Source of the DNA: a virus
Lineage: Duplodnaviria; Caudoviricetes
Virus record (IMG/VR): IMGVR_UViG_3300007553_000105
Coordinates: 31,773-95,772 of that record
DNA: 64,000 nucleotides
Reading direction: 5' to 3' (one strand)
The translations under genes were made by a program, and so were the position numbers. Under the pieces are notes generated by a model, which saw only the letters and a program-made list of their open reading frames with translations, had not been told where the DNA came from and made no database searches. This document shows positions 44,545-53,350 of the stretch, piece by piece; the stretch's first letter is position 1, and every line of letters starts with the position of its first letter.

Positions 44545-45143
44545 TAAATCCAACCTTTCAAGTTATAACCGCTTTTATACCCATCTGCGCTGAATGATGT
44601 TCTAACTTTAGTAGGGGTATATTGCGGTGTCAATTCTAAACTGACAATAAAGATACTAGGAATGGTAGACTTACCGCCAGGTACAGCTAGCGTGACGTAA
44701 TCACTGTCTTCTGGCAGTGTATAACTAAAGTTCTTTATAATGACAGGAACATTATTTGCATGTAGAGTACCATACGCACTAAACACTAGCACACTTGGAG
44801 GTACCCCTGGATTAGATGTACGAGTACCAAACTCTGGCTTAGTAGCAGCTTTGAAGAAGTGTAGCGCCGCTGCACTGTATTTTGCCTCTGCTTCTGTTTG
44901 TGCAGTAAATGTACCAGTTAAACTGATGGTAGGGTTGTTTGTACTTATAAAGTAGTTTTGTTGATATACACTGTGCGTCATATCATACGTACCGTAGTTA
45001 ACACTATGCCCAATTTGTATAGTTGGTGTATAAGGAAATATAACCCCCTGTTGACTTCGCAGTGGTGCCAAGATACCACCAAAGCCAGAAAATCCCGGCG
45101 CAAGTAATCTTACTTTTTGGCTACTTTCTACGCCACTACTCAT
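44544..45143 (-). CDS. Tail tube initiator / baseplate protein (gp48/gp54-like)
   Basis: GVIFPYTPTI, FTAQ...EA, HFFK, PP.VL.FSAYG, VPVII..F...LP...DY. Confidence 0.65.
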   Translation of the reverse strand: MSSGVESSQKVRLLAPGFSGFGGILAPLRSQQGVIFPYTPTIQIGHSVNYGTYDMTHSVYQQNYFISTNNPTISLTGTFTAQTEAEAKYSAAALHFFKAATKPEFGTRTSNPGVPPSVLVFSAYGTLHANNVPVIIKNFSYTLPEDSDYVTLAVPGGKSTIPSIFIVSLELTPQYTPTKVRTSFSADGYKSGYNLKGWI

Positions 45144-45751
45144 TGTTTCAATCTACCTTCAATAAAGTTAAAAATCTCTTGGTCGAACTTGCCAAAAAAC
45201 TGTTGGAAAACTTGCGCTTTCTTTTTTGGATCTGCATCACTAGCCATTGTGTTGCGGAAGTCTGTTGCGCTCATGCCTCCTGCTTCAACTGGCATTTTTA
45301 CAAAGTATACGCGATTTTCATCAGCAGCTTGTAATTCATCTGCTGCGTCAGGCAAAGGAGCAAGTGCGCCGCCGCTCATCAAACGATCGTCATCTTTTTC
45401 ACTAAACGCTAACACAACCGCAGTTTCATTTGGCTTGCGTCCTGCTAGTTCTACACTTGGGCGATATGGACTAGTGTTTAGGATATGATTTACTGGAATG
45501 CCAAACATCTTACTAATGATTGCTTTCTTCTCATCAAAACTAAAAGGATTCTTACTATAGTCGCCTGCTAGATGTTGTTTTTGCGCATCCTTGCTAAAAG
45601 TTGTAGCTATAAATACATTGTCAGCGCCAAAGCGCGACACCAGCTTTTTGTACAACGAAAAGTGTCCTTGGTGCATAGGCTGGAATCGTCCACCGTAAAA
45701 TACGGTGACGTTGTTAGTTTTACTTTCAGTTATAAGGTCATGATAGCGCAT
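45140..45751 (-). CDS. Cytidylyltransferase-like (HxGH nucleotidyltransferase) protein
   Basis: YGGRFQPMHQGH, NPFSFDEK, SATDFR. Confidence 0.8.
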   Translation of the reverse strand: MRYHDLITESKTNNVTVFYGGRFQPMHQGHFSLYKKLVSRFGADNVFIATTFSKDAQKQHLAGDYSKNPFSFDEKKAIISKMFGIPVNHILNTSPYRPSVELAGRKPNETAVVLAFSEKDDDRLMSGGALAPLPDAADELQAADENRVYFVKMPVEAGGMSATDFRNTMASDADPKKKAQVFQQFFGKFDQEIFNFIEGRLKQ

Positions 45752-49511: not shown

Positions 49512-50399
49512 TTAAAAAAACAAATGCTTATTATCATTATAAATTAAATTATTTCTTTCACTATACAACAAAATTTCATTTCTCAAATTGGCCTCTTCTT
49601 TATTCCACAACTCTTCTTTTTCAAAACAAGCAAAAAACTCTTTCCATACTCCCCAATCAATATTTTTAAATAGATCTTCCCAATAGAAAACATTTTTTAT
49701 ATATTTTAAATGATTAGGACTTTTAGTATACCATTTATAATTTTCAAATACCTGCTGTTTTCCTTTTGATATTCTAAACATGTCTTCTGCTGTTAGCGTT
49801 GGATCTGAATGAATATGCTTTATAGTACACAGCGTAAGTATTTGTTCCATTGAGTCAACTTCACGTGGTTCGATTGCTACTATTTCATAATTAGGAATAT
49901 GAACATCGAATTCCGCCAAGTAATATGGATCATGAAAATTACACACATATGGTTTACTATCAATAAAGCTAAAATCTAATTTCGATAACAACTCATTATG
50001 TATTTTTAATTTGAGATCAAAATCAATTTCCTTAGCTGACGCATCCCTATCAACAAAATTATAAGAATTAATAAAAAAATCAAAGTAAAAAGCAAATAGA
50101 CCCATTTTAGAAATTATAGAGATATCTTTAGATATAGAAGCATACTCAGCATTGAATATTTTTTTATATTCTATCATTGTACTCATATTATCTTTCAAAA
50201 ATTGTTCAGTTAACAATCTATGTTGTGAGTTGTTTTTAACTTCAGATATACAGTATAAGTTAGCAAAAAATTCATTATGAGGCAAAATTCTAAAATTATC
50301 TCTATAATTGTAATAAAGCAAGTAAAAAAGAAAGTTCCTACCCACCCCAGGAGATGCTATAAGATCTTTTCTAAAATGCTTGAACGGATGTAATATCAT
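49512..50399 (-). CDS. Hypothetical AT-rich protein (possible sulfotransferase-like P-loop)
   Basis: Antisense to its neighbours; likely start MILHPF (50399), 5 nt after TAAATA; IASPGVGRNFL N-terminal loop. Confidence 0.55.
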   Translation of the reverse strand: MILHPFKHFRKDLIASPGVGRNFLFYLLYYNYRDNFRILPHNEFFANLYCISEVKNNSQHRLLTEQFLKDNMSTMIEYKKIFNAEYASISKDISIISKMGLFAFYFDFFINSYNFVDRDASAKEIDFDLKLKIHNELLSKLDFSFIDSKPYVCNFHDPYYLAEFDVHIPNYEIVAIEPREVDSMEQILTLCTIKHIHSDPTLTAEDMFRISKGKQQVFENYKWYTKSPNHLKYIKNVFYWEDLFKNIDWGVWKEFFACFEKEELWNKEEANLRNEILLYSERNNLIYNDNKHLFF

Positions 50400-50433
50400 A
50401 AAGGTATTTAATAAAAGAAGATAATTATATAAT

Positions 50434-50676
50434 ATGAACAAACAAGAAGATGATGTTGACATTGATATTAATGATGCTATACTGATAAAAGGTATAGGAT
50501 ATTCTTATGCTTCAATATCATACGATAAAGGCGATAAGATAACGTCTGTTCGTCGTATTGAAAATAAAGAGCTATGGGACATACCCGTGGACTTATACTC
50601 AACGAAAGTAAAAAATTTGTTGGCAGTAGATATACTGCAACAACTTAAAAAAATAATATATGACAAGCAAGAGTAA
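50434..50676 (+). CDS. Hypothetical protein
   Basis: 80-aa ORF overlapping the resolvase start. Confidence 0.5.
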   Translation: MNKQEDDVDIDINDAILIKGIGYSYASISYDKGDKITSVRRIENKELWDIPVDLYSTKVKNLLAVDILQQLKKIIYDKQE

Positions 50677-51193
50677 AAACAAAGGCAAAGGATTTGAACG
50701 TGATGTTTGCAAAATCCTAGGCAAAATATACGGTGACAATTTTGAACGTGTTCCACATAGTGGAGCGTTTGTCGGCGGCGTCAATGCTGCACGTAAGAGT
50801 ACACTTACGGAAAATCAAATCAAGGCATTTAAAGGGGACATCATTCCACCTGATCACTGGAAGCACTTCAACTGTGAGTGTAAAAATTATAAGGATTTCC
50901 CCTTCCATCATTTACTACAAAATAAATCAATTCCATTACTTGAATCCTGGCTTGAACAAACACTAGACGCACACGACAACAGAGATATTGATCTACTTTT
51001 TATGAAGTTTGATCGCAAAGGCATATATTTGGCATTTCCAAAAAGACACAAAACCAAATTCTACTTAGACAGGCACATTACATATCAAAGCGAAAATCAT
51101 GGCCACTGGACAATTACATTCTGGGAAGACTTTAAGTCTGTATCAGTTAACACGCAAGCTATAGAAACAATGGCTATTAAAGGCACCGATTAA
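50660..51193 (+). CDS. Holliday junction resolvase (PD-(D/E)xK, Hjc-like)
   Basis: SKNKGKGFER, RVPHSGA, GDII, ECKNY, W.EQ. Confidence 0.8.
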   Translation: MTSKSKNKGKGFERDVCKILGKIYGDNFERVPHSGAFVGGVNAARKSTLTENQIKAFKGDIIPPDHWKHFNCECKNYKDFPFHHLLQNKSIPLLESWLEQTLDAHDNRDIDLLFMKFDRKGIYLAFPKRHKTKFYLDRHITYQSENHGHWTITFWEDFKSVSVNTQAIETMAIKGTD

Positions 51194-51228
51194 CCCCCCC
51201 CAATACTATTAAAGGCTACTACAAACTA

Positions 51229-51618
51229 GACATAAGGTTGGCACGCCAGTAATCAGTGCCGCGAATCCGTTCTGATGTGAGACGGTATGCAAATGGTTTA
51301 TCTAGTTAACCGCTTCAACAGACTATCCCTGGTGACGTCAGGGACGCCTTAAGCACACTGCTTCTGTTGTCGTAATGGTTTTTAAAAGATCAAGCTCTAT
51401 TGACACTAATATCTTGAGGGTAACTGGATATGCTGATACCATGGCATCCGGTGGTCCTGCGCTGTTTAGACGCATCGTAATAGGAGGTACAGCTCAACCG
51501 CCTCTCCCTGTAGTAAGGTTATGTTATGGTAATGTGGGCGTTTGCGAGGCATGGGAAATTTTCCTAACTTACAAATTTCATTCACACTTTGGCCTGTATC
51601 GGGCTTAGTGTGAATGAA
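51229..51618 (+). ncRNA. Candidate large structured non-coding RNA (family not recognised)
   Basis: GC-richer intergenic segment with many helices: GACATAA/TTATGTT closing stem, GCAC/GTGC, CCGT/ACGG, CAACAGA/TCTGTTG enclosing TCCCTG/CAGGGA and AGCA/TGCT, TCAAG/CTTGA, CTGGAT..GC/GCATCCGG, TGCG/CGCA, GAGGT/GCCTC, GGTTG/CAACC pseudoknot, and a 12-bp TTCATTCACACT/AGTGTGAATGAA hairpin. Several G-U pairs favour the + strand. Confidence 0.6.
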
Positions 51619-51702
51619 TACTCAGCGGGAAGAATATAATATAAGATTAAAGTATTATAACGTTAGATATGATATATGATCAGTATTAAAGATTTATAAA
51701 CA

Positions 51703-51766
51703 TTCAACAAATTAATCGAAGATTAATGAAGTTGAAATTGCTCGAAGAGCAATTGATACGATTAAT
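51703..51766. repeat. Tandem inverted repeats with C-GAA-G triloops
   Basis: ATTAATC-GAA-GATTAAT (51711-51727) and AATTGCTC-GAA-GAGCAATT (51736-51754); TTCAAC/GTTGAA extends the first. Confidence 0.75.
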
Positions 51767-51803
51767 AAATATCTTTAGCATAATATTACTTTTGGTGATA
51801 ATT

Positions 51804-52283
51804 ATGACTGATAGAAAGATAATCCCAATGACATTTGAAGAGTTTTGTCAGGCCTTCCTAAAATGGTCTGAAGAAATTATCGAAGCAAAAAAATTCGATG
51901 GTTTTCCTATATGTCCATATGCTAGACATGCACGATTGAACAATCTGGTACAGTTTATAGATGCACGTGAGAATGTTTCAGATCTAAACAAATTTGATAA
52001 AGAAAAATATGAAATAGGAGTTGCTTGGCTAGGTGATAATAATGAATCACTTGTTACTACTGAAAAATACTGTGAATACCTTTCAGAACTACACCCAGGA
52101 CTATTATATTTTACAAGTACCCCGCAGAGTGGTTATTTTGCAAAAAATTTCACCAATTGTGTCTTTATACAGCTTAAAGATGATATTTTAGAAAAACGAG
52201 GACAACTGCATAACACAAAATATTATGAGAGTTGGCCAGCTGAATATTATAAAGCTATCACAGGACAAGACAAATTATCTTGA
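51804..52283 (+). CDS. Hypothetical protein (DUF1415-like CPYA motif)
   Basis: W...II.......PICPYAR; likely start MTDRK at 51804, downstream of TAAATA (51766-51771). Confidence 0.6.
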   Translation: MTDRKIIPMTFEEFCQAFLKWSEEIIEAKKFDGFPICPYARHARLNNLVQFIDARENVSDLNKFDKEKYEIGVAWLGDNNESLVTTEKYCEYLSELHPGLLYFTSTPQSGYFAKNFTNCVFIQLKDDILEKRGQLHNTKYYESWPAEYYKAITGQDKLS

Positions 52284-52520
52284 TTTGCGTGATTTCTGCA
52301 TAGCTAAACTACGTTCCTCATTACGTTTATTGATTGTTTCAATAAGTATACGTATTGCGGGGACTGGCATAGTCATCACATCTTGATAGCTTATAGCGCC
52401 CCCACTATGTAGTATTAGATCTGTATATGATGTTTCAGTAGCATCATGATCTTTGTTATAACGCTCTATTATTTTTTCAATAGCCTGCGGCTGACTAGTG
52501 GAGATCAGCCTACGAAAAAA
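52275..52520 (-). CDS. -1 frame extension of the gp26-like gene (gp51-like / tail-chaperone GT-type domain)
   Basis: Open 81-codon frame FFRRLISTSQPQAIEKIIERYNKDHDATETSYTDLILHSGGAISYQDVMTMPVPAIRILIETINKRNEERSLAMQKSRKSR with no upstream ATG; entered via A AAT TTT TTC. Confidence 0.65.
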   Translation of the reverse strand, partial: FFRRLISTSQPQAIEKIIERYNKDHDATETSYTDLILHSGGAISYQDVMTMPVPAIRILIETINKRNEERSLAMQKSRKSR

Positions 52521-52523
52521 TTT
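52489..52523 (-). other. Programmed -1 ribosomal frameshift signal
   Basis: A-AAU-UUU (overlapping U-UUU-UUC) slippery site, 6-nt spacer, then hairpin GGCUGAU-CUCCACUA-GUCAGCC containing the 0-frame UGA. Confidence 0.65.
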
Positions 52524-53335
52524 GCAATATCTAAATCAACATCAGTTGACCAGCCATGTCCGCAATGTTGACATGTGGCTTTAAAATTTGTATCAATCGC
52601 TGGTTCTGAAAGTTTTTCAACTAGAGCTTTAATCTGTTCGTAATCAGATTTTGTGATTGATTGTAACCATTCACCAATTGTCTCTGCATCAGAAACAGTT
52701 TCTCCCGCAGCAGGAGTAACTGATGTAATAGAATTTGCTACTAGTTTAATTGTTAGTTCTGCCAATTCCACAAAAGTGCGGCCAAATATCTCGCCCCTCT
52801 GATCTTCTTCAATATCAGCTGAAATTAAACTTTCAATCATTTTCTTTTGTTTTATTTGTTGAATTTGCAACAGTGTTCTGTCTTTAAGATTATATGGCTT
52901 TACATCTACCTTAAAACCTTTTTCAAGAACAACGTGATCATCTATTTTAATTTGCCTTGCTGATGCAAGTATCCTATTAGCATCAACTGCTAACATGTTC
53001 ATTTCAGTACACGCTGGACATTTGATGTCAACATTTAAATCTTTGCCATACGTTGCTTGTCTGATAGCTAGCAGAATAACCAATAAGTCATTTACTGGGA
53101 CAGATTCAGGATTCATAATATCAGGGCAACAGCTACGAATAATAGCAGTAGTTGCTTCACCGTTGAACAAGGCGTCTGGCGTCTTTGTAATCAATTCATC
53201 TCTAGCAGTCATAGCATATACTGCCAAGTCGCCATCCACACTTAATTTTGGTTTAGGGTCATAATACTTTCCGCCACTTGGTAGAGTGACGTATAGTGAA
53301 GGCTTTCTATAAGCCTGAATTAGTGGGTTAGACAT
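52505..53335 (-). CDS. Baseplate hub assembly / tail assembly chaperone, T4 gp26-like
   Basis: NPL..YRKP.LYVTLPSGG.YY, MTARDE...KTPDALFNG, D...ILLAIR.ATYG, two CxxC motifs, C-terminal NFF; GGAG RBS before MSNPL. Confidence 0.8.
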   Translation of the reverse strand: MSNPLIQAYRKPSLYVTLPSGGKYYDPKPKLSVDGDLAVYAMTARDELITKTPDALFNGEATTAIIRSCCPDIMNPESVPVNDLLVILLAIRQATYGKDLNVDIKCPACTEMNMLAVDANRILASARQIKIDDHVVLEKGFKVDVKPYNLKDRTLLQIQQIKQKKMIESLISADIEEDQRGEIFGRTFVELAELTIKLVANSITSVTPAAGETVSDAETIGEWLQSITKSDYEQIKALVEKLSEPAIDTNFKATCQHCGHGWSTDVDLDIANFFVG

Positions 53336-53350
53336 AGGGGTTTTCTCCAA

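Follow-up and report, generated by a model that had tools for sequence, protein, structure and literature searches.

What is encoded in the long non-coding gap behind the Holliday-junction resolvase gene of a giant marine phage, and what could it be for? The window, which is the whole 64,000-nucleotide stretch analysed here, comes from a 95.8-kb virus record that is 27% complete, and its nearest cultured kin by neighbouring proteins are PA5oct, Phosso and RaK2-like jumbo myophages. On the near side of the gap come genes for a late sigma factor, gp47 and gp46, then a pair of AT-rich inserted ORFs and a PD-(D/E)XK resolvase; beyond the gap lie a 185-aa ORF and the convergent gp26 baseplate hub. 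The ORF-free interval of 532 nt (51194-51725) is indeed the largest in the window, the next largest being 281 nt. Its GC content of 0.44-0.46 exceeds that of the immediate flanks (0.27-0.38), as the sequence-only reading had it, but is no higher than that of gp46. The RNA described below and its setting are as follows.

50456..50483, plus strand: Sigma70-like promoter, 11/12 with an extended -10, a consensus match only
50660..51193, plus strand: PD-(D/E)XK Holliday-junction resolvase, the slot being taken in relatives by a SegE-type GIY-YIG nuclease or endonuclease VII
51222..51633, plus strand: whole structured non-coding RNA, ~410 nt, from conservation and GNRA strand bias, with the 3' end inferred from a PA5oct paralog
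52505..53350, minus strand: T4 gp26-like baseplate hub, a conserved convergent neighbour

The predicted promoter is a possible source of a transcript carrying the resolvase gene and the RNA. The two AT-rich ORFs, 49512-50462 (minus strand, 316 aa) and 50434-50676 (plus strand, 80 aa), are inserted between gp46 and the resolvase gene and are both absent from the contig of a related strain. The 316-aa protein has no match in Pfam or PHROG, and its nearest named Atlas clusters are sulfotransferase-like (0.89-0.91), which is a lead only. The 185-aa ORF (51726-52283) has homologs of 146-163 aa and a weak phrog_10325 match, and its start probably lies further downstream than called. A 203-aa ORF (45140-45751, minus strand) adjoining the late sigma factor has a cytidylyltransferase-like motif, and the syntenic gene of Atu_ph07 is annotated as a cytidyltransferase.

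The gap encodes a large pseudoknotted non-coding RNA of ~410 nt. Pattern and protein scans have identified 301 distinct homologous elements, and the gap is kept in all 22 close relatives having sequence there. A core alignment of 57 homologs is 87.9% paired, with double changes in 15 of the 19 pairs; none of 500 shuffles does as well, and slid controls reach 33-52%. The complementary segments listed in the sequence-only reading are all present, and helices had been said to tile the gap almost fully. The folding energy lies within chance (z of -1.60, and of -1.08 for 51222-51635), so that the helix list by itself is no evidence; the sole energy-significant part is the 3' hairpin (z of -6.9). 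GNRA tetraloops in the element body of 134 homologs number 76 on the plus strand against 9 on the minus strand, a bias that points to an RNA read from the plus strand. The element that had been placed at 51229-51618 is real but extends to about 51633, and covariation among homologs bears out the prediction of a large phage non-coding RNA with pseudoknots. A 77-aa ORF (51375-51608) within the RNA is rejected as a gene, being interrupted by stops in the relatives L003, L004 and L006. Part of the window is found in ten metatranscriptomic RNA runs. In four of these, contigs span the RNA, the resolvase gene and gp46 at similar depth, and one contig ends at 51587; such contigs record presence in RNA libraries only, with DNA carry-over possible and strand, ends and level unreadable.

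The structure consists of the following parts.

51222..51372, plus strand: 5' domain, a Polynucleobacter-1 homolog by type-A alignment with RF01718 members
51240-60, 51267-85 and 51295-311, plus strand: hairpins of the 5' domain
51224-30/51301-07, plus strand: 5' pseudoknot, 89% paired with 8 double changes in 9 relatives, and wide covariation
51316-69, plus strand: three-way junction
51390-417 and 51424-52 (block 51390..51452), plus strand: core hairpins P6 and P7, from covariation
51437-42/51526-31, plus strand: pseudoknot b between the P7 loop and a downstream strand, 93% paired with 67 double changes in 23 type-A RNAs
51461..51531, plus strand: universal core, with which a covariance model recovers bacterial and enterophage copies
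51461-65/51494-98, plus strand: pseudoknot a, 94.9% paired
51472-75/51521-24, plus strand: helix P8, from covariation
51483-505 and 51507-18, plus strand: loop-bearing hairpin and small hairpin
51577..51618, plus strand: terminal long hairpin, with no U-tract 3' of it and no terminator called

Three pseudoknots covary, namely the 5' knot, a and b, and none of them is the long-range knot that had been proposed between 51236-40 and 51495-99. That pairing shows no double changes: 9 close relatives have it 98% paired but without any variation, and among 23 type-A RNAs the figure is 68%. The covarying partner of the 51495-99 loop is the local strand 51461-65, and type E RNAs retain the 5' strand of the proposed long-range knot with a loop that is unable to pair with it. 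In the window's subgroup, in which knot a has a C-A mismatch, the long-range knot may be an alternative pairing. Of the rest of the proposed topology, part is borne out and part is not. The stem of the three-way junction (51316-22/51363-69) is paired in 63 of 63 cases with 12 double changes, the 51390-94/51413-17 helix is 92% paired with 50 double changes, and the loop-bearing hairpin (51483-88/51500-05) and the 3' hairpin are supported by homologs. The closing stem (51229-35/51519-25) is 79% and 70% paired and overlaps two better-supported helices, and the TGCG/CGCA hairpin, just 51-58% paired, clashes with better-supported helices. These helix-by-helix counts leave out four minor helices and the P6-loop rows.

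The RNA had been called unrecognised and unlike tRNA or tmRNA. ARAGORN and Rfam detect no tRNA or tmRNA in the gap, and RNase P, group I/II introns, small ribozymes, ROOL, GOLLD and OLE are without an Rfam model match. The window RNA has no Rfam match at the gathering threshold nor at an E value of 10, the cut-off of 37 bits for RF01718 not being reached, but alignment with RF01718-positive relatives identifies its 5' third as a divergent Polynucleobacter-1. Relatives with the same 5' domain, located behind the same resolvase, score 86.9 (L081), 63 (L065) and 92.1 (L369) bits against RF01718, and the window RNA has the RF01718 traits of three 5' hairpins followed by a three-way junction with conserved ACUAYCC and GGAYG strands. 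Polynucleobacter-1 is an orphan motif of which no example was found in purified phages (Weinberg et al. 2010, PMC2864571), whereas the core described here is present in cultured phages; this 2010 paper is the only literature found on the RNA family. The 5' architecture is shared, but the model is a 141-base fragment covering about the first third of the RNA, and the 3' core, the repeat pair U1/U2 described below and the many subtypes without the 5' domain are uncatalogued. The flanks in the published RF01718 alignment already hold the 3' core, the hairpin and the twin boxes. Subtypes B, C and D exchange the 5' domain and E exchanges the middle, and all keep the 3' module. The gene upstream of the window RNA encodes the PD-(D/E)XK resolvase, the published motif lies downstream of a GOS11034/PSSM2_218-like gene, and 204 relatives have a SegE GIY-YIG gene, which would correspond to GOS11034. 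By sequence comparison, the window RNA is a divergent, extended full-length variant of the orphan motif and not a member by score.

The repeat pair of the 3' module and the DNA that follows it are placed as listed here.

51533..51559, plus strand: U1, first copy of a ~25-nt degenerate direct repeat, with its box at 51553-57
51608..51633, plus strand: U2, second repeat copy, with its box at 51627-31
51634..51790, plus strand: 79% AT tract with C-GAA-G triloop hairpins at 51711-27 and 51738-52, a candidate unwinding element and single-stranded DNA loading signal

The first codons of the 185-aa ORF overlap the triloop hairpins. The strongest non-pairing covariation is between two sites flanking the terminal hairpin that are linked by identity, and these are the 3' boxes of U1 and U2. 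The 7-nt box differs between phages and matches within each copy, with at least 49 different boxes among relatives. Full-length alignments of types D and E reveal no same-strand partner covarying with the box, which counts for the RNA-primed origin proposed below. In anchored alignments of 152 distinct U1/U2 pairs, a G of U1 faces an A of U2 372 times against 57 times in reverse, the ratios being 3.8, 8.1 and 22.8 against 2.4, 2.1 and 3.2 for composition-matched shuffles. Isolated mismatches counted in distinct contexts also favour this direction for G/A (24 vs 4, p = 2e-4) and are 5 vs 0 for T/C, opposing the AT bias of U2. U1 shows no excess of local folding, and its pairing with the complement of U2 amounts to -19 to -22 kcal/mol against -14 to -15 kcal/mol for the reverse combination, being the better one in 12 of 15 hand-checked copies. 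Mismatches in this direction are what one would expect if U1 paired with the strand complementary to U2, namely the template. Copying of the repeat in the manner of a telomerase or DRT, which would give the opposite wobble direction, is rejected, and at 25 nt the repeat is unlikely to be a DGR template/variable pair.

What naturally complements U2 is the template at the transcript end, so the module can be read as an RNA-primed origin, for which the mismatch direction and the pairing energies both count. We tentatively propose, at somewhat less than an even chance, that the RNA is the transcribed part, or preprimer, of a self-contained replication-origin module resembling that of ColE1 RNA II. 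The analysis establishes the structure, the repeat rule and the anatomy and copy number of the module, and one transcript is published; a hybrid, its processing and a role in replication are what we infer, as follows. RNA polymerase would stop near the second box, and the knotted core and the terminal hairpin would bring U1 beside the template strand of U2. U1 would then pair with the template, tolerating G-T and U-G wobbles upstream and pairing exactly at the 7-nt box, and would leave a hybrid that persists. This hybrid may be trimmed to a primer, either by RNase H or by the structure-specific nuclease encoded next to the RNA. DNA synthesis would proceed from the primer into the AT-rich tract, and the displaced strand may fold into hairpins that load helicase and primase. 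Downstream of U2, GNA triloops number 93 against 21 GNRA tetraloops in the 134 homologs, and GNA triloops are very stable in single-stranded DNA; RNA-type loops upstream and single-stranded-DNA-type loops downstream of U2 count for such an origin. Other findings count against it. The raw T/C counts are without asymmetry (171 vs 190, confounded by a fixed 3-nt shift), and non-cognate U1/U2 pairs retain part of the G/A excess, indicating that shared ancestry inflates it. With an RNA 3' end that matches the template from the start, the model gives no reason for a second copy, and just 2 of 5 genomes have a phage RNase HI.

The distribution of boxes within genomes bears on who reads them. Boxes placed by hand differ between copies within one genome in G001 and PA5oct, and such copy-specific boxes count for an RNA-primed origin; in 121Q and GAP32, with boxes also placed by hand, copy-specific matches lie outside the shared box. 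All paralogs of 121Q, of GAP32 and of RaK2 share one genome-specific box, and orthologous copies differ between phages, which counts against an origin and fits a protein reader acting in trans. It has to be considered, doubtful as we find it, that the boxes are tandem sites for a phage protein, such as a dimer, and that the RNA is a trans-acting ribonucleoprotein scaffold or decoy, and a decoy in bacterial islands. Box positions are strictly identical, with wobble intermediates rare there, in agreement with a protein site and again to the detriment of an origin. However, the variety of boxes among relatives and even within one genome is hard to reconcile with a single protein reader, directional mismatches are unpredicted by a protein site, the abundance in PA5oct is low, and no protein partner common to phages and islands was found.

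The link between the aquatic elements and cultured phages was made via synteny: blastn of the aquatic subtypes against cultured phages and plasmids gives no match, and profile HMMs fail to detect the enterophage copies. In GAP32 and 121Q, the slot holds endonuclease VII and an 800-nt gap containing the element. The enterophage copies have the same loop motif and compensatory changes in knot a, knot b and P8. An 82-position covariance model picks up 6 of 11 enterophage loci where the core is predicted, though its scores are weak (best E 0.012). When aquatic sequences alone are used to build a covariance model, its top-ranked matches are a bacterial copy and three enterophage copies, all where predicted and again weakly scored. 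The PA5oct copies were assigned to the family by eye, from the same hairpin and knot a. No element is seen in the RaK2 gap at the resolvase slot, none is recognised in Phosso, SCTP-2, Atu_ph07 and XacN1, and all 13 matches of a GTDB pattern scan are without profile support. In Sinorhizobium phage Phosso, the resolvase and RNase HI genes are separated by 1 kb of GC-rich sequence dense in hairpins (L117:2986-4001), which has no model match and is possibly another large RNA. Xanthomonas phage XacN1 has a GC-rich structured gap near gp26 (L564:9841-10526), also with no model match. In the PA5oct and enterophage records, several annotated small hypothetical proteins overlap the RNA (L119:3142-3954 and similar gaps) and are probably not genes.

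Genomes carry 1-5 co-oriented copies, which lie on the same strand and are spread along the genome in 121Q (4), GAP32 (5) and PA5oct (3), and two aquatic genomes have a second, different subtype among accessory genes. The gene neighbours vary, so the element is not a gene-specific regulator, and co-oriented, genome-spread copies with varied neighbours count for an origin. GC and TA skew in two complete genomes give no support for one, the GC skew tracking the coding strand with no switch at the element. One PA5oct copy corresponds to ncRNA004, a non-coding RNA seen by RNA-seq at 0.02-0.08% of phage reads (Lood et al., PMC7318152, Table 1). Its annotated end, 246734, is the last base of box 2, and a rare transcript ending there counts for an origin.

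The same transcript end would suit a cis-acting transcription device, in which U1 would pull the nascent 3' end out of the polymerase hybrid, ending or pausing transcription without a U-tract and shielding the convergent baseplate operon. The polymerase hybrid is 8-9 bp, about the length of the box; the main copy closes its operon at the convergence point; and the device relies on the same pairing of U1 with the template. We nevertheless consider it unlikely, because a knotted RNA of 400-800 nt far exceeds the needs of termination, some copies have their own promoter (by consensus matches) and no upstream gene in the unit, and the conserved downstream hairpins of single-stranded-DNA type are left over. 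Antitermination was also tried and fits the main copy poorly, convergent genes following it.

Among 262 elements with sufficient upstream DNA, a sample biased by the queries used, the upstream gene encodes a SegE-type GIY-YIG nuclease in 204, the PD-(D/E)XK resolvase in 45, both in 1 and neither in 12. In the gp46-gp26 slot (L119, L534, L565, L566, L567), PD-(D/E)XK, SegE GIY-YIG and endonuclease VII interchange although their folds are unrelated, which suggests that the small GIY-YIG protein is a structure-specific resolvase. A nuclease gene before 250 of the 262 elements, together with a compact knotted core and invariant loop bases, invites the idea that the RNA is catalytic or serves as a guide. 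As a ribozyme it might dock U1 and U2 one after the other and so cut out the hairpin or close it into a circle; as a guide it might direct the nuclease encoded next to it or the island recombinase. Covariation of the P6 loop with the 5' anchor in U1 as well as in U2 suggests alternate docking. However, the nuclease comes in three folds that are not related to one another, and other copies lack it as a neighbour. For the ribozyme suggestion of the sequence-only reading, nothing was found in favour: no known ribozyme model matches, and contigs of four RNA runs contain no joint skipping from U1 to U2. We consider a catalytic or guide role decidedly unlikely.

The module also occurs outside phages. 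A complete copy, flanked by DUF6641 and a small tyrosine recombinase, lies in an integrative island at tRNA-Met in a Burkholderiaceae genome of 1.95 Mb. Such varied settings show the module to be free-standing, and its completeness in an island where no Rep or primase is recognised counts for an RNA-primed origin. A search of five phages, run without a positive control, turned up neither DUF6641 nor the island recombinase. The island of G099 (L598:10544-17661), at tRNA-Met, carries an integrase, DUF6641, the RNA, a 198-aa tyrosine recombinase and a small AAA ATPase, and could be a satellite of these phages.

The earlier guess at a structured primer or R-loop RNA is therefore the best-ranked reading, on the directional repeat, the multi-copy module and the single-stranded-DNA-type hairpins, and it stays inference. 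A bolder form of it, to which we give rather little credence, is that a widespread class of pseudoknotted RNA sets the origins of RaK2/PA5oct-like jumbo phages by re-annealing a wobble-degenerate internal copy of its own 3' end to the template, that origin specificity resides in a fast-changing 7-nt RNA-DNA box and not in an initiator protein, and that bacterial islands borrow the phage replisome. No paper was found on how replication starts in these 290-380 kb phages. A motif orphan since 2010 is now described at full length, placed in phages and given a mechanism that can be tested, and an uncultured aquatic family is linked to cultured jumbo phages of E. coli, Cronobacter, Klebsiella and Pseudomonas. 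Should the primer model prove wrong, what is left is still a large RNA, common among these phages, whose matched repeats call for an explanation.

Among known systems, T4 has several origins, such as ori(uvsY) and ori(34), each consisting of a promoter and a downstream unwinding element primed by an R-loop; T4 origin transcripts have no known need of a conserved knotted fold or a twin repeat. ROOL and GOLLD are likewise large, multi-pseudoknot, phage-borne and functionally orphan (10.1101/2024.12.08.627333), and the loop-loop contacts of the ornate window RNA could be intermolecular as in an abundant RNA-only structure of their kind. Unlike them, the window RNA has no Rfam match, sits outside tRNA islands, is apparently not abundant and is tied to a downstream DNA element. 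The low PA5oct abundance, metatranscriptome contigs that cover the RNA with its neighbours and not alone, and a repeat and downstream DNA hairpins not accounted for make such a structure highly improbable. ColE1 RNA II is a long folded transcript that forms a persistent hybrid and is made into a primer by RNase H, the displaced strand loading helicase with no Rep protein (PMC5043065). The logic proposed for the RNA-primed origin is alike, the likeness being one of predicted mechanism and not of homology, as no plasmid match and no Rfam match was found. The window element differs from RNA II in its pseudoknotted core, in its 25-nt wobble repeat with a variable box, and in being phage-borne and multi-copy. 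If the proposal is true, the ColE1 principle would reach as far as giant phages, with an origin defined by RNA.
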